From a virus, in UHGV virus genome UHGV-0175528: 18,135 nt of DNA, one strand, 5' to 3'. Both the position numbers and the translations under genes were made by a program. Each line of letters begins with the position of its first letter. Within the stretch, counting starts at the first letter, position 1. The notes beneath the pieces are model-generated. The model saw only the letters and a list, made by a program, of their open reading frames with translations, did no database searches and had not been told where the DNA came from. This document shows, piece by piece, positions 5,369-15,780 of the stretch.

Positions 5369-6196
5369 TTATTTAACCTGGATAAATGGTGTATTTGCAC
5401 CGCTGGTCATGTATTGCGGCAGTGTGCCGTTCCATTTATTGATGGCTTCCAACTCCATAACACCGGGGTTCTGGCGCAGAGCTTCACCGCGTAAACGAAT
5501 AGCATCGGCTTCGGCCTGGGCTTTTGTGCGAATCGCATCAGCCTGTCCGGCAGCTTCCGCGCGCAACATGTTGGCTTCCGCTTCGCACTGTTTAACTTCC
5601 TGCTCGCGCTGCAGTGTTTTCTGGTTCGCCGTGACTTTGGCATTAATGCTGTCGATAACGGTTGACGGGTACTCCGGCTTACCCACATATGAGAGGCTCA
5701 TTACCTGAATACCGATGGGTGTCATTTCCTCCTGGATGTCTTTAAGAGCTGCATCCAGTAGTTCAGACTTCCCGCCGTCGATAAATTTGTCGGTGGTCAT
5801 TTTGCTGGCCAGTCTATTGAGTGCGTCGGCGATCTTTTGACGTAGGTCGGTGTCGGTAATGTCATCCACGCCTTTGCGGTAGGTCTGAAACACCGTGGTA
5901 ACTTTGGATGGGTCAACTTTGTAGGCCACGCCGATGTGATAGCCGATGGTTGTACCGTCACTCATCTGGAAACTGAACGGTTCATCGTAGGTCTTCATTT
6001 GTTTGAAGGTCGGGAAGATGTAAACTTCAGTATTCCAGCCGGTCCAGTAGCGGCCAACGCCAACCACTTCACCGACGCCTTTGTCGTCGCCCAGTTTATT
6101 TACCTTGATGCCAACATTACCTGGTTCAACGCGATCGCAACCGACAAGGCCAATGGTCGGAAGAACAATGGCTAAAGCAAAAATAACTTTTTTCAT
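5369..6196 (-). CDS. SPFH/band-7 (prohibitin/HflKC-like) domain lipoprotein
   Basis: N-terminus MKKVIFALAIVLPTIGLVGC has a lipobox (LVGC). Central SPFH-like region and an Ala/Glu-rich coiled-coil C-terminus (AEAAGQADAIRTKAQAEADAIRLRGEALRQNP). Confidence 0.85.
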   Translation of the reverse strand: MKKVIFALAIVLPTIGLVGCDRVEPGNVGIKVNKLGDDKGVGEVVGVGRYWTGWNTEVYIFPTFKQMKTYDEPFSFQMSDGTTIGYHIGVAYKVDPSKVTTVFQTYRKGVDDITDTDLRQKIADALNRLASKMTTDKFIDGGKSELLDAALKDIQEEMTPIGIQVMSLSYVGKPEYPSTVIDSINAKVTANQKTLQREQEVKQCEAEANMLRAEAAGQADAIRTKAQAEADAIRLRGEALRQNPGVMELEAINKWNGTLPQYMTSGANTPFIQVK

Positions 6197-6557: not shown

Positions 6558-7139
6558 TTAATGTGTCACTGGCGCTTCTGGCATACCATGAGTATTCAGA
6601 TCGTGAATCATTTCATCCAGAAGGAGTTCAAGCCCTTCGCGCCCCATAGCAGAGACAATGAAACCATTATTAGGATCTGCGATGAGCATTTTTTGATAGA
6701 GAAACAGAACTCGCCCCATGCCTTCAGCTTCACCATATTTTTCAATAAATCCCCATTCGACATGGTTTTGCAGGGCAATGCGAAGTGGTCCTGGGTATAT
6801 ACTCATGCAACCATGCTTCCCCTTATAAATAACTGCGCGATCTGTAGTTCCGTTATCGTTAGGGATATCAATGGTGCCGTTCTTGTCTTCCACTTCACTG
6901 ATAAATTTCGCTACATATAGCCAGCGCCACTGGGCAACCTTCATATCGACTGAAAATTTGCCCAGCAGTCCGGCATCATCAGCTTCTGCAATACATTGCA
7001 TGATTCTTAACCCATGCCAGTATGGATTATCGTATTCACCATCATTAAGCCGCTGTACGGCCTCAACATAATCAATGGTTGTATTGCCAATTTTTATGCC
7101 ATGTGGCGTAACTTCTGGTCGGAACTCTGAATGATTCAT
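6558..7139 (-). CDS. Hypothetical protein (193 aa), no recognised domain
   Basis: Start taken at the MNHSEFRP ATG (7137-7139), which overlaps the upstream gene's stop (ATGA-type coupling). Confidence 0.55.
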   Translation of the reverse strand: MNHSEFRPEVTPHGIKIGNTTIDYVEAVQRLNDGEYDNPYWHGLRIMQCIAEADDAGLLGKFSVDMKVAQWRWLYVAKFISEVEDKNGTIDIPNDNGTTDRAVIYKGKHGCMSIYPGPLRIALQNHVEWGFIEKYGEAEGMGRVLFLYQKMLIADPNNGFIVSAMGREGLELLLDEMIHDLNTHGMPEAPVTH

Positions 7140-7324
7140 AATGTTTGCTCCTTTGCTGGTGGAATAATCGTGTAGCCAGCTCTTTTTGCCATCCACAGAA
7201 ATGTATCCATGCAGCCAACGAATTCATTATCCAACAGATGTTTTGAGTAAATTACTTCACCATTTTCAATGGTTAGCAACACTCTTACTTTTTTATGTGT
7301 TATGTTCTGTTGTTTTTCTTTCAT
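7136..7324 (-). CDS. Hypothetical small protein (62 aa), coupled to the downstream 193-aa gene
   Basis: GGGAGA SD 7 nt upstream of ATG 7322-7324; stop overlaps the next start. Confidence 0.5.
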   Translation of the reverse strand: MKEKQQNITHKKVRVLLTIENGEVIYSKHLLDNEFVGCMDTFLWMAKRAGYTIIPPAKEQTL

Positions 7325-7522
7325 TTATTTATCTCCCATATGCTTTGCGCAAATACAGGTTGGCTATATGAAGATAAGAATCTCCATGTTGTGCAATGAG
7401 GCAGGCAGTTTTATACGATGCCTTATTTTTCAGGAAAGTCATAACTGAGTTCCCTCTATGAATAAAGGTTGTAACAATCCCCGGCGATAAAACCGTAATA
7501 AACGTTCAGAGCATGTTTGTTG

Positions 7523-7888
7523 TTATTGCGCTAGTTCTTTTTCGGCAGCAGCTTTTGCATATTCACATGCAAAATTCAGAATTTCGCTACCGAGTGTTTT
7601 TATTTCGTTATTACTGGACATATGTAATACCTGTGTTGCATGCAATAAATGATAAACATTTACCGCAAATGAGTCCGGCTCCAGACAAATGCCTTCATAA
7701 TCATCTTGCTGTGAGGTTGTTTCTGTCATTGCTCCTGAAGTGCATGCGAGCCTGTTTTTGACAATTCTCTTTCCTCTAATCACTATATCGGCTACATCTA
7801 TTGCCTTTACAACCTCCGGGAGAAATTCCTGGTTTGTATAATCAAAGTTATCAACATGGAGAACAGTTATGTTTTCGAACTTTTTCAT
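7523..7888 (-). CDS. Hypothetical prophage protein (121 aa)
   Basis: Complete ORF in the leftward operon; no recognised motif. Confidence 0.5.
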   Translation of the reverse strand: MKKFENITVLHVDNFDYTNQEFLPEVVKAIDVADIVIRGKRIVKNRLACTSGAMTETTSQQDDYEGICLEPDSFAVNVYHLLHATQVLHMSSNNEIKTLGSEILNFACEYAKAAAEKELAQ

Positions 7889-8069
7889 GGCTTCCTCAGC
7901 TGACTTATATGTTCTGCTATATAGCGAGTCTCAGAAGTGTTTTCATATTGAGACTGTTTCCTCAATGATTGATAATTAGTTACCGGATGCTTATCCGTGT
8001 CCGGCGCACGACCACACGTAGCCGCGTGTTGGTCTCCATTTACAATTCAGCTCTCAATGGAGGATAAAA

Positions 8070-8296
8070 TGATTAACGAAGAGCAACTTGAAAAAGAAAT
8101 TTCAGCGCTCAAAAAAGAATTAATGTGGCACAAAGTCGCTATCTCTGCATTAATTCGTCAGGTGGTTTCACCTGAAGATAAAGTAAATTTTATGAAGCAC
8201 TTCTCATGTTCATCAAATGAATTTTTTACTGACGGTCCTCATCCAGAGGCTGGTTTTTGGATCCGTCAACTATTTTCGCAAGATAAGCGTAAATAG
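8070..8296 (+). CDS. Hypothetical small protein (75 aa) on the opposite strand to its neighbours
   Basis: GGAGG SD 6 nt upstream of ATG 8070 (MINEEQLEKEISALKKEL...); a strong hairpin lies 14 nt past its stop. Confidence 0.5.
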
Positions 8297-8468
8297 TGTC
8301 GTCAATGTTCGCATCGCTCTTGAATTTAAGAGCGATGCTCTTAATATCCTCTGAAATTATTGCCAGATTACCGTATGTTATATTTTTATTATTGCGCTCA
8401 GCGCTTTTTTGTATGCAATCAAGCAATTCACCAATGAGACATATGTGGTAAGCATCACAGTTTTTCAT
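8226..8468 (-). CDS. Hypothetical small protein (80 aa), possibly coupled to the upstream HTH gene; overlaps the 3' end of the + strand gene
   Basis: ATG 8466-8468 overlaps the TGA of the HTH gene (ATGA). However, the 11-bp hairpin at 8311-8338 lies inside this ORF, so it may be spurious. Confidence 0.35.
   Translation of the reverse strand: MKNCDAYHICLIGELLDCIQKSAERNNKNITYGNLAIISEDIKSIALKFKSDANIDDTIYAYLAKIVDGSKNQPLDEDRQ
8311..8338 (+). terminator. Strong hairpin (11-bp perfect stem, 6-nt loop) downstream of the 8070-8296 gene; probable terminator or RNA structure
   Basis: GCATCGCTCTT-GAATTT-AAGAGCGATGC, followed by TCTTAATAT. Confidence 0.45.
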
Positions 8469-8926
8469 GCGCAAGTATCCCCACCTGTTGGTTTACCGGT
8501 TAACAGCCACATCGGATCGCAGCCAAGAACATTTGCCAGTGGGATAAGCATACTGATAGTTGGTTCATACTCTCCGCTTTCCCACTGGATGATGATTTCT
8601 TCATCGAGATCGAGCAGCCTGGCGAGTTCGGCGGTTGTTAAGCCGCAGGCTTCGCGTTGGGTGCGAAGGTTAACCAGCCAGCTTTCAGGGAAGGATTGTT
8701 TTTGTTGTGCAGGAGAAGCCGCAGATAGAGCATATTCATGGATAAATTCCATTACTTCAATGCCCAGTTCCTTTGAGCGAGCACAATCCAGAAGATGGAA
8801 TGTGCGTACAGCACTTAGCAAATTTGCAATATTTAATGCAAAGGAATCAAGTTCTAAGCCCTTAAGCGTAACACAGCCGCAGTTGATAAAATTGGTTGTT
8901 TCTGGGGTTGCTTTTAGTGTTTTCAT
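8465..8926 (-). CDS. XRE-family helix-turn-helix protein (C-terminal HTH, about 90-aa N-terminal domain of unknown function), first gene of the leftward pL-like transcript
   Basis: C-terminal LTTAELARLLDLDEEIIIQWESGEYEPTISMLIPLANVLGCDPMWLLTG is a typical HTH_XRE. Sits directly downstream of a consensus-like sigma-70 promoter. Confidence 0.7.
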   Translation of the reverse strand: MKTLKATPETTNFINCGCVTLKGLELDSFALNIANLLSAVRTFHLLDCARSKELGIEVMEFIHEYALSAASPAQQKQSFPESWLVNLRTQREACGLTTAELARLLDLDEEIIIQWESGEYEPTISMLIPLANVLGCDPMWLLTGKPTGGDTCA

Positions 8927-9072: not shown

Positions 9073-9762
9073 CTAACCAAATCTGTTTATATTGAATGGT
9101 ACTGATGAGATCACTTTAGACTGGATATAAAGCAGAGCTAACCCCTCTTTTTCGATGCTCCATGGTTGATAATTGGGGTTATCAGATAACACCATGATTT
9201 TGCTTCCAATTTTCTGAAGTCTTTTCACGTAGCATTCTCCATCAAAACAAAATGCATAAATGCCATCGCCATCAAAATAAGTTACTGTCTTATCAAGAAA
9301 AAGAAGGTCGCCAGGTGAGATTGTGGGAGCCATACTGTCTCCTCTGGCGTTACCTATTTCTATATTTTTGAATGCCCGATTTCCAACAAGGCGTCGGGCA
9401 TATTCAGGATCAAGTTCTATTGAGCGCACTACATCTATCAAGTCACCACGTACATGAGTTCCATCACCGCAACTAAACTCAACATCAAGGACATTAAACA
9501 CGACGCTATCTGTTCTTGTCTGGTGTTTCTCTTGCGAGGAAAAGGTTGGTGAGGAGTCTTCACCTAAGAACCAGGATTGTGGATAACCGCTAATCTCTGA
9601 TAAATGCGCGAGCTTATCACTCCGTGGAAATGTTTTTCCTGTTGTCCAGTACTGCACTGATTGCGCACTCACACCTAACTTGCGGGCCAGTTGAGCCTGA
9701 GTCCATCCTTTGGCTTTCAGCATTGCGGCTATTCGATTTTCCGTGTTTTTGACGTTCTTCAT
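9073..9762 (-). CDS. cI: CI-like phage repressor (N-terminal HTH, C-terminal S24 LexA-type autopeptidase)
   Basis: HTH region WTQAQLARKLGVSAQSVQYW; S24 nucleophile motif GDSMAPTISPGDLLFLDK and Lys in CYVKRL. ATG at 9760-9762 has an AGGA SD; the track start at 9768 is a TTG. Confidence 0.9.
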   Translation of the reverse strand: MKNVKNTENRIAAMLKAKGWTQAQLARKLGVSAQSVQYWTTGKTFPRSDKLAHLSEISGYPQSWFLGEDSSPTFSSQEKHQTRTDSVVFNVLDVEFSCGDGTHVRGDLIDVVRSIELDPEYARRLVGNRAFKNIEIGNARGDSMAPTISPGDLLFLDKTVTYFDGDGIYAFCFDGECYVKRLQKIGSKIMVLSDNPNYQPWSIEKEGLALLYIQSKVISSVPFNINRFG

Positions 9763-9895
9763 GACCAAATCCTGTGGGTTTCTTTACAAGGATAAATCTT
9801 TATTTGATTTTAGTGTATTCGATCCTTTTGCAACTTGCATGTTAATTTAAACTTGATGTATTCTTGATTCATAAAGTTAATATTGGTGCTTTGTT
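9763..9895. promoter_or_regulatory. Divergent cI/cro control region (OR-like operators with pRM/pR-type promoters)
   Basis: 133-bp AT-rich spacer between divergent repressor and Cro-like genes. Repeated CTTGAT / ATCAAG-type half-sites (AACTTGATG, TTCTTGATTCAT, GCAACTTGCATG) are shared with the pL region. Confidence 0.6.
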
Positions 9896-10168
9896 ATGAA
9901 AGAAAGTGATTACGACAAACTTCGTGCATTAATTGCGCAAAATGCTGTAGCGCGAAATCTTGGTGTGACGCCGCAAGCGGTGAATCAGTGGTTTTCAAAA
10001 AACACAATTCCTGCTCGTTTCGTTTTACGCGTATGTGAAGTAGTTGCATGGAAAGTCACGCCACATGGCTTAAGGCCAGATCTTTATCCTCATCCTGAAG
10101 ATGGAATTCCTGATTCGTTACGCAAAATTTCAAATCCAAGCTTAGCGCACACAGAGGATGAGAAGTGA
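9896..10168 (+). CDS. cro: Cro-like / YdaS-family small HTH regulator
   Basis: Divergent from cI; LGVTPQAVNQWFSKNTIPARFVLRVCEV is typical of the Cro/YdaS family; 90 aa. Confidence 0.75.
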   Translation: MKESDYDKLRALIAQNAVARNLGVTPQAVNQWFSKNTIPARFVLRVCEVVAWKVTPHGLRPDLYPHPEDGIPDSLRKISNPSLAHTEDEK

Positions 10169-10238: not shown

Positions 10239-10532
10239 TTAGCGTTCGCTGAGAAGTTGTTGGTAAGCCTTAAAGGATGCGAACTGCATTCTACCTTCGG
10301 CATTGATTCCAATGTCTTCGCTTGTACACCAGGCGATGAACTCGGCTGTATCCGCTTCAACTTTAATAACTCGTTGCCCGCTTCTTTCGACACGCTTAAT
10401 CAATTTTTCAGCGTCGTGTTTCCACTCGGTGTAACTGTCGGAGAGCACATCAGCATCAGTAAAAATATTTTTGAGCTCATGATACTGAATCGCATCGCGA
10501 AACCAGAATAAACCAACGGCCTGAACTTTCAT
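10239..10532 (-). CDS. Hypothetical protein (97 aa) transcribed antisense to the early-right operon
   Basis: Very good SD (AAAGGAGG, 6 nt) before ATG 10530-10532. The overlapping + strand ORF 10158-10511 has a poorer initiation context. Confidence 0.5.
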   Translation of the reverse strand: MKVQAVGLFWFRDAIQYHELKNIFTDADVLSDSYTEWKHDAEKLIKRVERSGQRVIKVEADTAEFIAWCTSEDIGINAEGRMQFASFKAYQQLLSER

Positions 10533-10651
10533 GTCGAACCTCCTTTGGTTCTTTTGTTTATAGGGATCAAAAGGATAACTGAAGGAAGGTTCGGCACCAA
10601 TAAGTACGAATGTGCGGAATCTTAAAAGAATTTATCCGTAAGGAGATGGCG

Positions 10652-11359
10652 ATGAGCACTGCAATTTTTAACGGCAAAGCATCCATGACCAGCCTTGAAA
10701 TCGCAGAGCTGGTGGGTAAGCGTCATGACAATGTGAAACGAACTATTGAAACATTGGCCAAAGGTGGCGTTGTTCGGTCTCCTCAAATTGAGGTTTCCGA
10801 AAGAATCAATAACTTAGGTTTTAAAGTTCAATATGAGCATTACCTGTTTGAAGGAGAACAAGGTAAGCGCGACAGTATCATTGTCGTCGCTCAGCTTTGC
10901 CCCGAATTCACAGCCCGCCTGGTAGATCGCTGGCGCGAACTGGAAGAACAGATCCGTAAGCCAATGAGCGAAATCGAAATGGTTGCCGCAATGGCCCTTG
11001 AAGCCGTTCGCCAACAGAAACGGATCACTCAGGTGGAAGAAAAAGTCAGCCACGTTGCTGAAACAGTCGAGCAAATCAAAAAGGGCACTATTCGTGAGGG
11101 CTATGCCGGATATCGCCAACTGAAAGCGAAAACCGGTTTGTCAGATGATAAATGCCGCAATCTGGTGAACGCTTATCAAATTCCTACAGATACCCACGAG
11201 TTTATGACGCCGGACGGATTGTTATCACGTCGCGCAATTGTTGCTGTAGAACCGTTTATGGCTGCTTTTTATCGGGTTACGGAGGAAGCAGAACCGCGAG
11301 GGACTCGCTGGTATCACCCGAAAATAGGGTTATTTCAGGTTATTGGTTGGCAGCGGTGA
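10652..11359 (+). CDS. Rha-family phage regulatory protein (antirepressor-like), N-terminal Rha domain plus C-terminal domain
   Basis: MSTAIFNGKASMTSLEIAELVGKRHDNVKRTIETL matches the Rha (Phage_pRha) N-terminal signature; AGGAG SD 6 nt upstream of ATG 10652. Confidence 0.75.
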   Translation: MSTAIFNGKASMTSLEIAELVGKRHDNVKRTIETLAKGGVVRSPQIEVSERINNLGFKVQYEHYLFEGEQGKRDSIIVVAQLCPEFTARLVDRWRELEEQIRKPMSEIEMVAAMALEAVRQQKRITQVEEKVSHVAETVEQIKKGTIREGYAGYRQLKAKTGLSDDKCRNLVNAYQIPTDTHEFMTPDGLLSRRAIVAVEPFMAAFYRVTEEAEPRGTRWYHPKIGLFQVIGWQR

Positions 11360-11385
11360 AAAAAAAGCCGGGTAGTCACCCGGCT
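11359..11385 (-). terminator. Strong intrinsic terminator oriented for minus-strand transcription
   Basis: Minus strand reads GCCGGGT-GACT-ACCCGGC followed by 9 T (plus-strand A-run 11359-11367, stem arms 11368-11374 and 11379-11385). Confidence 0.65.
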
Positions 11386-11450
11386 CGCTCAACGTTAGTA
11401 AAGACAACTTCACAGAGAAGTAAGCCAGTAACATCCAAGAACATTTGCCT
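11362..11450 (-). ncRNA. Candidate small antisense RNA (about 90 nt, oop-like) with its own promoter and terminator
   Basis: Minus-strand promoter TTGAAA (plus 11480-11485), 18-nt spacer, extended -10 TGgTATTTT (plus 11456-11464); transcript would end at the 11359-11385 terminator. No ORF of meaningful length. Confidence 0.3.
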
Positions 11451-11775
11451 TAGTAAAAATACCAGTAAGCATATGAATGTTTCAAGCCTAAATATTGATT
11501 CTGCAATTTCGGGACGTTACACTGTTCTGGCACCTTATAAAGCGGGTGCCGGGATTGGAACCCCGGAATTGTCAGCGGCGACAAACGACGCGCCAGCGTC
11601 TTTTTTGTTGTCAGCGCCTGCGCACACCCAAATTATGGTGGGCTGGGCAGGGGAGCCGAAAGGCTCGCCGGTTCCCGTTGACGCCGGTAGTTCCAACCCT
11701 GTTCAGTCCGCCACCAGCGAGCTTGGAACCTCCGGTGGTGGATATTATCACCCACTGTCAACGGAGGCTGCCATC

Positions 11776-12138
11776 ATGGCTACTGTCCCAACTTCTCCAT
11801 ACCTGAAAATCGAAGTCGTCAACGGCAAAGCTGTTATTTTCTCCTTGCATGTTGCCTGTCATTTCAAGCGCATGCACCAGAACATCGTCGACAAAATCGA
11901 GTATCTGAACTGCTCACGCGAGTTTTTTACCCGCAATTTCATACCGGGTACTTATCACATCTATGGTGATTCTCTGCATGGTTATTACATCACCCTTGAT
12001 GGGCTGATGATGCTTCAGCTTGGGCTAAGTCTGCGCACAATGCGGTACTACGAGAGCTGCATTGAAGCATTCCATGAGGCAGAAAACAGCCTCAGTCATA
12101 CCGCTTTCCGCCGTAATCAATGGGAGGCGCGTCCATGA
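11776..12138 (+). CDS. Short Rha-domain protein (120 aa)
   Basis: GGAGG SD 7 nt upstream of ATG 11776; MATVPTSPYLKIEVVNGKAVIFSLHVACHFKRMHQNIVDKIEYL...FFTRNF...YITLDGLMMLQLG follows the Rha-domain pattern. The track ORF extends upstream to 11152, but that part overlaps the previous gene and a GC-rich segment. Confidence 0.65.
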   Translation: MATVPTSPYLKIEVVNGKAVIFSLHVACHFKRMHQNIVDKIEYLNCSREFFTRNFIPGTYHIYGDSLHGYYITLDGLMMLQLGLSLRTMRYYESCIEAFHEAENSLSHTAFRRNQWEARP

Positions 12139-12329: not shown

Positions 12330-12550
12330 TTCGTCGCGTTGTGAATTCTCTGTATCACCGATACAACCGTTGCCCCCGTGTGGGGCAGTGGTTCACCACC
12401 AGCAATGGTCACGTTTTGCGGGTTTGTCTGGTCAGTATCGAAAGCCAGAAAGTTGTGTGTGAATTACTGGGGCGTAACTACACCATCAGTTACCCTCTGG
12501 CGGTGTTTCAGTCCGGAAAAATGTTTAAACGCCTGGGAGGTGCCGTGTGA
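12326..12550 (+). CDS. Hypothetical small protein (74 aa)
   Basis: GGAGG SD 7 nt upstream of ATG 12326; ATGA overlap with the upstream stop; initiation context nearly identical to the previous gene's. Confidence 0.55.
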   Translation: MIRRVVNSLYHRYNRCPRVGQWFTTSNGHVLRVCLVSIESQKVVCELLGRNYTISYPLAVFQSGKMFKRLGGAV

Positions 12551-13503
12551 GTAGCAAAATTCTCGGTAACGTCTGGGATGCATGTGCCGCGTATGGAGTC
12601 AAAGGTGCAAAGCTGATGATCATGGCGCGTCTGGCTGATTATTCGAATGATGACGGGGTGTGTTATCCCGGTGTTGAAACAATATGCCGACAGCTTGGGT
12701 TGGGAGAAAGCACAGTAAGAACGGCAATTTCAGAGCTGGAGGCTGATGGCTGGCTGACGCGTCAGTCACGTCGCAAAGGTAATCGTAATACGTCCAATCT
12801 TTATCATCTGAATGCTGATCGGCTTGAGCAGCTTGCCAGAACGGAGCGGGATAAGGTCGCTGAACTGAAACAGCAACGCAGACTTTCAGTATTACGTGAC
12901 CCGTCAGAATCTGAACCTTCAAAATCTGACCCGTCAGAATCTGAACCTTCAAAATTTGACCCGTCAGAATCTGAATGTTCAGGTGTGTTTGACCCTTCAG
13001 ATTCTGGCAAAAAAACGGTTTTGACCCTTCAGAATCTGGACCCAGATCCACAAGGTTTAAAACATGATCCGCAAGTAAATTCAAAACATGATCCGCAAGA
13101 TATTGGCGCATCCGCTGACGCGTCTGCACCAGCGCGCTCTGCCCGACAGGAATATTCACCGGAATTTGAACAGGCCTGGCAGGAATATCCCAAACGTGCT
13201 GGTGGTAATTCCAAGTCGGCAGCCTTCAAAGCCTGGAAAGCCCGTCTCAGGGAGGGAATAAAACCGGAGACCATGCTTGATGGTGTGAGACGTTATGCCG
13301 CCTGGGTACGTGCTACAGGAAATACCGGCACACAGTTCGTGAAGCAGGCTGCGACGTTCTTTGGACCCGATCGTCACTTCGAAGACTTCTGGCAACAGCC
13401 AGCCGCTCCCGGAGGTGGGCGACAGCGACAGGTCGATGTCCTGGCTGGCCTGGGAGCCATGTCTGACAAATTCGGTAAATCCAGTGACAAATTGACATTC
13501 TGA
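12547..13503 (+). CDS. Phage replication initiator (O-like; N-terminal winged-helix/HTH DNA-binding domain, repeat-rich linker, C-terminal domain)
   Basis: GTG start coupled to the upstream stop, with a GGGAGG SD. N-terminal GVCYPGVETICRQLGLGESTVRTAISELEADGWLTR is typical of HTH replication initiators. Iteron repeats lie inside the gene, and it sits upstream of DnaC-like and DnaB-like genes. Confidence 0.8.
   Translation: MSSKILGNVWDACAAYGVKGAKLMIMARLADYSNDDGVCYPGVETICRQLGLGESTVRTAISELEADGWLTRQSRRKGNRNTSNLYHLNADRLEQLARTERDKVAELKQQRRLSVLRDPSESEPSKSDPSESEPSKFDPSESECSGVFDPSDSGKKTVLTLQNLDPDPQGLKHDPQVNSKHDPQDIGASADASAPARSARQEYSPEFEQAWQEYPKRAGGNSKSAAFKAWKARLREGIKPETMLDGVRRYAAWVRATGNTGTQFVKQAATFFGPDRHFEDFWQQPAAPGGGRQRQVDVLAGLGAMSDKFGKSSDKLTF
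12897..13039. repeat. Iteron array (five copies of TGACCC[G/T]TCAGA[A/T]TCTG, about 30-33 bp period) inside the initiator gene; probable origin of replication
   Basis: Copies start at 12897, 12927, 12957, 12990 and 13022; followed by two copies of AAACATGATCCGCAAG (13059-13100). In frame they encode DPSESEPSK-type repeats. Confidence 0.65.
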
Positions 13504-13513
13504 GGTGACAGCG

Positions 13514-14392
13514 ATGATGACGTTTAACCTGCGTGAACAACAAAAAAGACTACAGGCGCGAATGGATGAGTTACGGGCAGAGATTGCATTTGCTCAGAAG
13601 GGCGAAAAGCCATGGCCTTATCGTTCCTGCCTGATGCGTGAAGGTCGCGGATATTGCGAAAAACACGGTAAATACCATACGCATATACTGGTGTGGAGCG
13701 ATCGTAATGGCGAGGACAGAGAAAAAATTTCATGCTGCCCTGACTGCTTGATCGCTGAGGCTAACGATTTGACCATGGAATTGTCGTCCATCAAGGCGGA
13801 AGAGCTGACTGATAACGCCGGAATTGCCCTGCGTTTTCGGGACTGCGAGTTTGATAATTATCTGGAGGTTAATCCTGACGCAGCCAGAAATCTTGCAGCC
13901 TGTCGCCGCTATGCGGAGAACTGGCCAGATATGCTGGAGAACGGCACCAGTCTTGTTATGACTGGCAGTTGCGGTACTGGGAAAAATCATCTGGCGGTAT
14001 CAATGGCAAAACACATCATCCGTAACTATCTGGCCAGTGTGGAGATCACCGACGTGATGCGTCTTACCCGTGCTGTGAAAAACTGCTGGCGGAATGGCAG
14101 CGAAAAAACAGCGGATGAAGTTATTGAGCATTATGCGTCAATGGATTTGCTGATCATCGACGAAGTTGGTGTTCAGTTTGGCAGCGCGGCTGAAATGGCT
14201 ATTTTGCAGGAAATTATCAATGCCCGGTACGAAAGTATTCTGCCCACCATCCTGATTAGCAACCTTTCACCGGATGAGTTGTGGGCGTTCATCAGCCCCC
14301 GCATTGCCGACAGGATCACAGACGGGGGGCGCAACTGGTTGTCGTTCAACTGGCCCAGCTACCGTTCTCGTATCAGAGGTGTGGCTGCATGA
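13514..14392 (+). CDS. DnaC-like AAA+ helicase loader (IstB/DnaC family) with an N-terminal Cys-rich segment
   Basis: Walker A GSCGTGKNHLAVSMAK and Walker B LLIIDEVG; GAGGTGA SD before ATG 13514. Confidence 0.85.
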   Translation: MMTFNLREQQKRLQARMDELRAEIAFAQKGEKPWPYRSCLMREGRGYCEKHGKYHTHILVWSDRNGEDREKISCCPDCLIAEANDLTMELSSIKAEELTDNAGIALRFRDCEFDNYLEVNPDAARNLAACRRYAENWPDMLENGTSLVMTGSCGTGKNHLAVSMAKHIIRNYLASVEITDVMRLTRAVKNCWRNGSEKTADEVIEHYASMDLLIIDEVGVQFGSAAEMAILQEIINARYESILPTILISNLSPDELWAFISPRIADRITDGGRNWLSFNWPSYRSRIRGVAA

Positions 14393-15780
14393 CAATACCA
14401 GTCTGGCGTAACGATGACCTGGAAGGCGCTGTTATTGGCGCGTTCTTTCTGCGTGGGGCAGATCCTGAAGTGATGGATATTCTGGCCACATTGCCGGCGG
14501 ACGTTTTTTCTGTACGAGCGTATCGGGATATCTACACAGGTATCTGCAGACAGGCCCGTGTTTCAGGTGTGATTGACCCTGTGCTGCTGTGTAATGAGAT
14601 GCCGGAACTTGCCCCGGTGATTACTGATACCGGGCGCAAAACCTGGGTGAAGTCGTCACTGGAGCACTATGTTGCAGCGTTGCGGCGCAATGCCGCATTG
14701 CGCGATGCAGAAAAAACACTGAATGAGGCGTTACAGAAATTACGTGATGCGCATACCTGTGAAGCAGCTGAAGATGCTCTGAAGGATGCGCAGAACATGA
14801 TGGCCTCATTGTCGACGGGGAAGGGTATTATTCAGCCGGTACATATTGATGATGTGCTTCCGGAAGTGGTTGAACGTGTTGAATGCCGGAATCAGGGGCT
14901 GGAGAAATCCAGGACGCTGATGACCGGTATTGATGAACTGGACGCAAAAACAGGCGGTATGGAACCCGGCGACCTGGTATTTATTGCGGCTCGTCCTTCG
15001 ATGGGTAAAACCGAACTGGCGCTGGATATCATCGACAAGGTGACTGAGCAGGGGCATGGTGTTCTTCTGTTCACAATGGAAATGGCGAACATCCAGATTG
15101 GTGAGCGCATGGTATCTGCGGCTGGAGGAATGCCGGTATCACGCCTGAAATCTGTCGCTCACTTTGAAGATGAAGACTGGGCGCGTTTCTCCCAAGGTGT
15201 GGGGCGGATGACCGGGCGTAATATCTGGATGGTGGACCAGGCGAACCTGACCATTGACGAGATATATGCAACAACGAAACACCACCTGATTAAACATCCG
15301 GAAACGGCGCTGGTGGTGGTTGATTATCTCGGGCTGATAAAAACCCGGAGCACGGGGCGTCATGACCTTGCCGTGGGTGAAATCTCAAAGGGGCTTAAAG
15401 GCCTGGCAAAATCCGGCGGATTACCGGTGGTTGCGTTGAGTCAGCTCTCCCGCGGTGTGGAGTCCAGGCCCAATAAACGCCCCATGAACTCAGACCTGAA
15501 AAATTCCGGAGAAATAGAGGCGGATGCAGACATCATTCTGATGCTTTACAGGGATGAAGTGTACAACCCGGATACGCAGGCCAGGGGCATCGCAGAAATC
15601 AATATCACGAAACAACGTAACGGTTCTCTGGGGACGATTTACCGGCGTTTTTATAACGGACATTTTCTGCCTGTGGATCAGGAAAGCGCACAGATTCTTT
15701 CTACCCCAATGCAGCAGCCCCAGCCGCGCAGATACAGCAACAAACGAACTGACAGCAGTAAGATGGAGCGTTTCTTTTGA
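14389..15780 (+). CDS. DnaB-like replicative DNA helicase
   Basis: ATG 14389 overlaps the upstream TGA (ATGA). Walker A ARPSMGKTELALDI and DnaB-type C-terminal RecA-like domain (VVVDYLGLIK, SQLSRGVESR). Confidence 0.9.
   Translation: MTIPVWRNDDLEGAVIGAFFLRGADPEVMDILATLPADVFSVRAYRDIYTGICRQARVSGVIDPVLLCNEMPELAPVITDTGRKTWVKSSLEHYVAALRRNAALRDAEKTLNEALQKLRDAHTCEAAEDALKDAQNMMASLSTGKGIIQPVHIDDVLPEVVERVECRNQGLEKSRTLMTGIDELDAKTGGMEPGDLVFIAARPSMGKTELALDIIDKVTEQGHGVLLFTMEMANIQIGERMVSAAGGMPVSRLKSVAHFEDEDWARFSQGVGRMTGRNIWMVDQANLTIDEIYATTKHHLIKHPETALVVVDYLGLIKTRSTGRHDLAVGEISKGLKGLAKSGGLPVVALSQLSRGVESRPNKRPMNSDLKNSGEIEADADIILMLYRDEVYNPDTQARGIAEINITKQRNGSLGTIYRRFYNGHFLPVDQESAQILSTPMQQPQPRRYSNKRTDSSKMERFF

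Follow-up and report, generated by a model that had tools for sequence, protein, structure and literature searches.

The closest described relatives of the locus considered here are the immunity RNAs of temperate phages. In the immI region of P1 and P7, c4 controls icd-ant, and P4 acts by premature transcription termination. Gifsy-1 carries an isrK-orf45-anrP locus, in which short IsrK turns on the translation of read-through mRNA (PMC4825925). The Rfam C4 and isrK models detect CI and seqA relatives inside genes of the Bro network (PMC10111431). Small RNAs (sRNAs) of other phages, namely lambda oop, P22 sar, and a group of Hfq-bound prophage sRNAs of pathogenic E. coli, provide further points of comparison. 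We compared these systems with an interval of virus genome UHGV-0175528, analyzed as one stretch of 18,135 nucleotides (nt), here called the window, which represents the immunity/early region of a lambdoid prophage. The interval probably contains three small-RNA genes packed between two Rha-type genes: an isrK/C4 switch on the plus strand and, divergent from it, a candidate sRNA on the minus strand.

A scan of the whole 18-kb window with Rfam models at their gathering thresholds gave exactly two matches, isrK and C4. The isrK match (RF01394) covers positions 11530-11606 of the plus strand with 63.6 bits against a threshold of 50, and the C4-type antisense RNA (RF01695) covers 11631-11718 of the same strand with 81.4 bits against a threshold of 45 (E = 6e-15, model positions 1-87). 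By these covariance matches, the GC-rich segment between the two Rha-type genes is a known pair of phage immunity RNAs. This identity was absent from an earlier sequence-only reading of the window, which had nevertheless been right to single out the segment by its composition: GC content is 0.56-0.62 across 11500-11800, compared with 0.39-0.47 on both flanks. The same reading had described a plus-strand hairpin with a T-run at 11598-11620. The hairpin is real, but it lies at 11587-11606 (GACGC-GCCA-GCGTC-TTTTTT), where it was found independently in our terminator scan. Since the Rfam isrK match spans 11530-11606, we identify it as the isrK terminator.

A probable isrK promoter (TTGATT, 17 nt, TACACT; 11495-11523, plus strand) was read from the sequence. 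It ends 7 nt before the Rfam 5' end of isrK and stands back-to-back with the candidate promoter of the minus-strand RNA. Identity of the isrK -35 element and most of the spacer (11490-11516) across the selected loci is by construction, as this stretch was the exact search pattern. The -10 element (11518-11523) is outside the pattern and was identical in the variants inspected. The c4-a1b1 motif (RF03163) reached 21.7 bits at 11517-11569, below its gathering threshold of 46.7, and isrK describes this region better. A search of the GC-rich segment for tRNA and tmRNA found none.

The C4 element has a long closing stem, two inner hairpins, a b' loop (11672-11683), an a' segment (11690-11696), and a 3' CCACCA. 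When 13 variants were folded with RNAalifold, the consensus contained 28 pairs. Compensatory changes were seen in 9 of these, and no pair but the last was ever broken. The covariance check across related prophages that had been suggested earlier supports the C4 fold; the RNAalifold consensus of the minus-strand candidate is weak.

Sites complementary to C4 flank it on both sides. Two are inside isrK, a1 (UUGGAAC, 11555-11561) and b1 (UGUCAGCGG, 11570-11578), and two are C4 target sites in the leader between 11723 and 11767, a2 (UUGGAAC, 11723-11729) and b2 (UGUCAACGG, 11756-11764), all on the plus strand. The b2 site runs into a Shine-Dalgarno sequence (GGAGG, 11763-11767) that is located 8 nt before the ATG at 11776. 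For comparison, E. coli genomes, IMG/VR, and metagenomes supplied 55 unique isrK-C4 sequences. In all 55, the C4 a' and b' segments had complements both in isrK and in the leader, with lengths of 6-7 nt for a and 9-12 nt for b. The a' segment occurs as 5 alleles and the b' segment as at least 8, and a2/b2 co-vary with a'/b' in every variant. Both the membership in the cassette and the co-varying complementarity are direct observations of this analysis. The a'/b' segments reassort freely, always together with their own a1/a2 and b1/b2 partners, suggesting that many hetero-immune types exist among E. coli prophages.

By analogy with the described systems, we infer that C4 acts as a translational block. 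Its a' and b' segments would pair with a2 and b2 in the leader, and the b2 duplex would cover the ribosome-binding site of the Rha-like open reading frame (ORF) that starts at 11776. Translation of this ORF would then be blocked, and by polarity the expression of the replication genes would probably be lowered. The decoy sites a1 and b1 of isrK would compete for C4, and RNase P processing would also be expected. In most variants, b2 pairing continues over the GGAGG (11-12 nt). The window allele itself fits this mechanism less well, as its b' loop reads UUCCC and not UUUCC, a U-to-C change that cuts b2 pairing from 12 to 9 nt.

The agreement with P1/P7 immI extends beyond a covariance match above threshold. 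In both cases, a' and b' have sites upstream and downstream, the latter over the ribosome-binding site, the a/b segments are allele-specific as in heteroimmunity, and the regulated gene belongs to an antirepressor (Bro/Rha) network. However, the module in the window is not a separate immI operon, but lies in a lambdoid early-right region between Rha and replication genes. It controls a Rha-like ORF of 120 amino acids rather than icd-ant, and its a1/b1 sites are in an independently terminated isrK. P4 offers the same pair of Rfam elements, C4 at CI and isrK/c4-a1b1 at seqA (the c4-a1b1 model scores 44.1 in this control), together with an RNA inside a Phage_ASH ORF and replication functions downstream. 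The P4 ORF begins after the isrK-like element, whereas the frame in the window runs through isrK as well.

The window repeats the order of Gifsy-1 (PMC4825925): an isrK, which has its own promoter and a leaky terminator in Gifsy-1 and a probable promoter here, then an AUG-started frame, translated in Gifsy-1, and then an antirepressor-like gene. The AUG of Gifsy-1 is about 107 nt from the isrK 5' end, comparable to an ATG at 11635 in the window, inside the C4 5' end, and in both phages nucleotides are conserved but amino acids vary. In contrast, orf45 is a separate ORF of 45 codons in a locus beside antQ, whereas the frame in the window reaches past the 5' end of isrK and is joined to the Rha-like ORF. 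Furthermore, no divergent minus-strand RNA has been described for Gifsy-1.

This frame, here called Ash-Rha, extends from 11473 to 12138 on the plus strand and has a strongly signalled internal start at ATG 11776. Its upstream 101 codons cross the isrK promoter, isrK, and C4. In the translation of 11473-12138, Phage_ASH (PF10554) matches residues 16-109 with 54.6 bits against a gathering threshold of 26, which corresponds to nt 11518-11799 and thus to isrK and C4, and Phage_pRha matches residues 124-204. PGAP labels the homologues "ash family protein". The frame was free of stop codons in 66 of 66 unique variants. The numbers of polymorphic stop sites among these variants were 0, 15, and 11 in frames 0, +1, and +2, respectively, although the three frames are similarly prone to stops (3.85%, 3.82%, and 4.7% of single substitutions). 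Differences in the length of the Ash stretch were all multiples of 3 (ATG offsets 281, 284, and 287). The in-frame ATG is still present where the upstream context differs (phiP27 and locus L079); in phiP27, it forms an ATGA overlap with the preceding gene.

Since the Ash frame is open in all 66 variants, it is probably translated. Transcription that enters from upstream would probably lead to translation of the isrK/C4 stretch, fused to the Rha-like ORF. Substitutions in the Ash stretch are without codon periodicity and without a third-position excess, as expected for a sequence constrained at the RNA level. The frame thus appears to be kept translatable without conservation of its amino acids, and the stretch most likely represents RNA genes plus a translated, sequence-tolerant N-terminal extension or leader, in line with what has been described for orf45 of Gifsy-1. 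These findings qualify two earlier statements. The segment had been taken not to be ordinary coding sequence, which agrees with the missing periodicity but not with a frame that is joined to the Rha-like ORF and kept stop-free. It had also been described as open in two frames. Both frames (11152-12138 and 11495-11806) are indeed open in the window, but only the first stays open in relatives, and the second is interrupted in many of them.

In P4 (8168-8584, minus strand), Phage_ASH matches the old "cI ORF", which overlies the CI RNA and C4 match. Phage_ASH thus overlies C4-type RNAs both here and in P4, and "ash family protein" and some "Icd-like" names therefore mark C4-type cassettes. The epsilon protein of P4 belongs to a different family (PF25738); one paper nonetheless equates Ash with epsilon.

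The minus-strand element begins and ends with signals that had already been noticed in the sequence-only reading. Its intrinsic terminator (GCCGGGU-GACU-ACCCGGC followed by U8; 11386 to 11359) abuts the TGA stop codon (11357-11359) of the upstream Rha gene. The stem, at 11386-11365, has 9 pairs, 6 of them G-C, and is followed by 8 consecutive U residues at 11366-11359, one fewer than originally counted. The terminator is strong and can act on the minus strand only, since the plus-strand hairpin has an A-run before it and CGCUCAACG after it; in this respect, too, the earlier description was accurate. The predicted sigma-70 promoter, TTGAAA-18-TGgTATTTT, is present as described at 11485-11456, with the -35 element at 11485-11480 and the TGg and TATTTT at 11464-11456, and overlaps the ATG at 11473 of the opposite strand. 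Such a match alone is expected at chance rate. When the same promoter/terminator scan was run on lambda as a positive control, it recovered pO and the oop terminator with equal scores.

Together, promoter and terminator would most likely give rise to an RNA of about 90 nt (11449 to 11359, minus strand), divergent from isrK, if the start is taken about 7 nt after the -10 element. This candidate overlaps the Rha gene at its stop codon only, with the U-tail covering the TGA. From 5' to 3', a conserved block is followed by a central hairpin (11407-11421) and by an AU-rich linker whose last residues are GUUGAG, with the terminator behind it. The 5' block contains an invariant 10-mer, 5'-GUUCUUGGAU-3' (11442 to 11433), a putative seed. 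Depending on the allele, it is predicted to fall within about +1 to +16 of the RNA, with positions of +1 to +4 for alleles B and C and of about +8 for allele A. In this predicted layout, in which the hairpin differs between alleles, the candidate looks like a seed-type sRNA of enterobacteria. Class signs of an Hfq-dependent sRNA are also present, namely GUUCUUGGAU at the 5' end, a tail of U6-U9 in all variants, and AU-rich linkers before GUUGAG.

The interval between promoter and terminator had been considered free of minus-strand ORFs. The window allele does contain one of 22 codons, with an AUG at about +6, but none is conserved, as the AUG is replaced by CUG in allele C, the commonest allele, and the frame is not kept. 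For this reason, we rejected a minus-strand small protein as the product of the element. A plus-strand nut-like or processing site, composed of a boxA-like CGCUCAAC and a variable boxB-like hairpin, was also considered; CGCTCAAC at 11386 and a following hairpin of 5 base pairs with a 5-nt loop resemble the boxA-boxB layout. The leftward operon, however, has no second copy of the hairpin, the sole boxA of lambda consensus (CGCTCTTAA), at position 8334 of the minus strand, is accompanied by different hairpins, and no arginine-rich N-like protein was found among the five translated minus-strand ORFs (6558-8926 and 10239-10532). The plus-strand nut site was rejected on the absence of a leftward hairpin copy and of an N-like protein among the ORFs translated. 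Taken together, these two explanations appear highly improbable.

The lambda-type boxA itself is a perfect match (CGCTCTTAA) and is located within two overlapping hairpins of 7-8 base pairs downstream of an HTH gene (about 8290-8345, minus strand). It could be a nutL-like or a terminator element; the rightward side yielded no matching boxA.

Of 5426 complete E. coli genomes, 237 carried the 113-nt spacer that separates the stop codon of the upstream Rha gene from the ATG at 11473. The spacer also occurred in 9 phage records, IMG/VR, and metagenomes, and in every case it was flanked by this Rha gene and isrK. Carriers include E. coli SE11 (NC_011415, module at 2159036-2159493), O157:H7 PV15-279, and the phages ASU11 and Stx2_EH1910. 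The module of the candidate sRNA occurs as three alleles (27 unique sequences from 102 loci), of which A is that of the window. The terminator is kept in 27 of 27 unique variants, with an identity between alleles of 24-26/27. The sequence between the conserved signals is only 40-55% identical across the three alleles. Between alleles A and C, the body is identical at 22 of 49 positions and the stretch from the 10-mer to the -10 element at 5 of 13, whereas the terminator agrees at 24 of 27 positions, the block ATCCAAGAAC at 10 of 10, the -35 hexamer at 6 of 6, and the TG plus -10 hexamer at 7 of 9, with all critical positions kept. The 10-mer is identical (10/10) in all allele pairs (Fisher p = 6e-4 against interspersed positions). 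Critical promoter positions are conserved in 13 of 13 cases between A and C, compared with 13 of 30 interspersed positions (Fisher p = 3e-4); for the critical positions of TG and -10 alone, the comparison is 7/7 against 13/30 (p = 0.008).

The element was not present where isrK-C4 follows other genes (phiP27 and locus L079). It is tied to this Rha gene and missing elsewhere, which marks it as a separable, moron-type insert. Scans of IMG/VR and metagenomes with the search pattern yielded no further alleles, but the same three in the same context plus one random match, and distant Rha homologues from other genera had no such module past the stop codon. At locus L008 (E. coli ETEC4090, about 1350-2450), an insertion sequence element with an integrase core domain gene is inserted directly after AAATAT of the isrK -35 region. 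The insertion moves isrK-C4 apart from the module of the candidate sRNA and is in effect a natural knock-out of the promoter.

The predicted signals, together with a 10-mer that is kept in three diverged alleles, favor a discrete minus-strand unit of about 90 nt, as had been proposed in the sequence-only reading, and we consider it somewhat probable that such an RNA is made. The element may plausibly be an independent, unannotated sRNA gene without a database entry. A 10-mer that stays invariant at the 5' end of a drifting body is better explained by a trans-acting RNA, probably a seed sRNA of the Hfq type, than by a pure cis-antisense RNA. The conservation pattern thus suggests that the candidate acts in trans via its seed.

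A purely cis-acting RNA, similar to oop or P22 sar, would instead pair with read-through mRNA at the junction of Rha and ash-rha, and RNase III cleavage or transcriptional interference would then uncouple Rha from the antirepressor-like and replication genes. The geometry is compatible with this idea, as the minus-strand RNA would be fully complementary, over 11359-11449, to any rightward read-through transcript that joins Rha to the ash-rha ORF, while its promoter lies across the ATG at 11473 and its terminator reaches into the Rha stop codon. The map position also resembles that of oop. Yet cis-antisense pairing has no need of conserved sequence, and the 10-mer is invariant amid drift. Moreover, the candidate covers no ribosome-binding site and no coding sequence past the stop codon, and shows no similarity to oop. 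Exclusive action in cis therefore seems unlikely, although the candidate and a read-through mRNA would inevitably pair in cis if both were made.

The comparison with oop, which had been made in the sequence-only reading, is accurate as far as size, orientation, and map position are concerned. Like oop, the predicted RNA is leftward (77-90 nt for the two), with its own promoter and an intrinsic terminator some 80-90 nt apart, located between early regulators and replication genes, and both score equally in the scan (9/12 with TG, plus a terminator). Homology was not found, as the local alignment score of 16 compares with 13.9 +/- 2.4 in 500 shuffles, 101 of which scored as high, and only the terminator tail aligns. 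In addition, oop is antisense to 55 nt of cII coding sequence. The candidate reaches no further than the Rha stop codon, and has a conserved 5' block suggesting action in trans. P22 sar, from the arc-ant junction of immI, is likewise a small RNA directed against an antirepressor operon that arises from an intercistronic region and ends at the 3' end of the upstream gene. Judged by its published description, sar differs in covering the ribosome-binding site of ant, whereas the candidate stops about 24 nt short of the ATG at 11473 because its own promoter occupies that region.

It is also conceivable that there is no functional sRNA at all. The hairpin might be a one-way insulator against antisense transcription into Rha, or a 3' stabilizer of the Rha mRNA, and the promoter-like site and the 10-mer might be kept for N-terminal codons of ash, as an upstream element of isrK, or as a protein-binding site. 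Several results count against the sRNA; those on the promoter match, the -35 element, and the strand of the structure also fit such a view. The bare promoter match occurs at chance rate, with 3 sites in 2.2 kb against 2.7 expected from shuffles. The -35 element sits in ash codons 3-5 and just upstream of the invariant isrK promoter, in sequence that is already constrained. Folding z-scores are alike on both strands (minus, -3.5, -4.1, and -3.0; plus, -2.6, -4.1, and -3.9), and the asymmetry of G-U versus C-A in hairpin variants is split, with allele A pointing to the minus strand and allele C to the plus strand. Structure consequently does not assign a strand to the sRNA, since neither measure discriminates. 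The RNAalifold consensus of the candidate amounts to -4.5 kcal/mol only, and the conservation tests are shallow, as there are only three independent alleles. No convincing target was found within the window, where the best non-self duplexes reach about -31 kcal/mol compared with up to -29.6 for shuffled sequences. Finally, the candidate sequence was not found in the searched literature, and the EcOnc sRNAs that could be placed lie elsewhere: EcOnc24 and EcOnc11, which together with EcOnc10 and EcOnc12 is now HnrS, are in tail or late regions.

The absence of an sRNA nevertheless leaves other observations without explanation. There is nothing to insulate against, as no minus-strand gene is found for more than 5 kb to the right of the terminator. 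TG and -10 are kept although the sequence on either side has diverged (7/7 against 13/30, as above), and the N-termini of ash differ between alleles (MNVSSL and MIISRP) while TTTCAA is kept. We therefore consider it distinctly unlikely that the signals serve only such other functions, and retain the minus-strand sRNA as the favored reading.

In the RNAalifold analysis of 11356-11449 (minus strand), the conserved 5' block GUUCUUGG is proposed to pair with CCGGGU.AC, the terminator's own 5' arm, which would be an alternative to forming the terminator. The pairing is weak, and since both partners are invariant, it is beyond a test by co-variation.

Two possible partners of the candidate in the window were discarded. 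A G-U-rich duplex of 24 base pairs at 12562-12589, near the start of an O-like gene, barely exceeded the shuffled controls. An exact 15-nt repeat of the sRNA 5' region (CCAAGAACATTTGCC) is located at 8524-8538 on the plus strand, inside an HTH gene (8465-8926, minus strand), and was rejected because the HTH mRNA has the same sense as the sRNA. The gene segment with the repeat was also present in 9 other loci with sRNA allele A or B; the repeat is probably a coincidence. With permissive E-values, Rfam gave only chance-level matches for the minus-strand RNA (SorY, suhB, and SorX, 16-18 bits, far below gathering thresholds).

The Hfq-bound prophage sRNAs of pathogenic E. coli (AgvB, AsxR, and HnrS/EcOnc10-12) share with the candidate the character of a short, moron-like, stand-alone gene in a lambdoid prophage, an intrinsic terminator with a long U tail, and a functional 5' end. 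They are located in late regions and are compared here by their published descriptions. The locus could also be a compact switch of three RNAs and one protein, in which about 300 nt encode isrK, C4, and the translated N-terminal part of the antirepressor-like protein they control, and a third, previously undescribed sRNA gene abuts them with its promoter across the start codon of this protein. Through its invariant 5' seed, this sRNA would act in trans on mRNAs of host or phage, and so link the immunity state of Stx-type lambdoid prophages to the expression of other genes. We put this forward as a tentative and rather doubtful extension.

The bulk of these results describes a new instance of the known isrK/C4 cassette, which annotation pipelines label only as protein. 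Prophages with this early region include Stx2a-converting phages, and the typing literature describes the "Rha/Ash" genes of these phages as being of unknown function (PMC8951638). Recognition of the Ash region as an isrK/C4 cassette could explain how the antirepressor-like gene, and perhaps replication, is held in check, and the combinatorial a'/b' alleles could explain the hetero-immunity of related prophages. If expressed, the minus-strand candidate would add an uncharacterized sRNA in about 4% of complete E. coli genomes, at the decision point of the lysis-lysogeny circuitry in toxin-converting phages. Without its expression, the locus adds nothing beyond known immI/CI biology.

The surrounding genes are those of a lambdoid immunity and early region. 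A CI-like repressor with HTH and S24 peptidase domains is encoded at 9073-9768 on the minus strand, and a Cro/YdaS-like gene at 9896-10168 on the plus strand. The upstream Rha-family gene, also on the plus strand, has its longest ORF at 10610 to 11359 and a likely start at ATG 10649, after AAGGAG; its homologues are annotated as "Rha family transcriptional regulator". Of the two Rha-domain genes that had been said to flank the segment, this one passes the Pfam cut-off for Phage_pRha (41 bits against 29.9), whereas the downstream 120-residue ORF (11776-12138, plus strand) remains just under it (29.2 bits, E = 1.5e-6), with a TIGR02681 match at E = 3e-10. It is followed by two small ORFs, an HTH_36 protein (12547-13503), a DnaC/IstB-like ATPase (13505-14392), and a DnaB-type helicase (14281-15780). 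Among public sequences, the nearest are those of E. coli prophages and of Stx-converting phages, at 82-92% identity. LC567818, the published Eru7 representative (PMC8951638), matches the window only from the isrK promoter rightwards.

An ORF of 97 residues at 10239-10532 on the minus strand, with AGGAGG ahead of it, lies between the cro-like and Rha genes in opposite orientation. It is annotated as "hypothetical protein" in relatives (loci L001 and L009), is moron-like, and breaks up the rightward operon. In the leftward region, a protein of the SPFH/Band 7 family (105 bits; 5369-6196, minus strand) is encoded by an accessory gene that is unrelated to the candidate sRNA and to the cassette.

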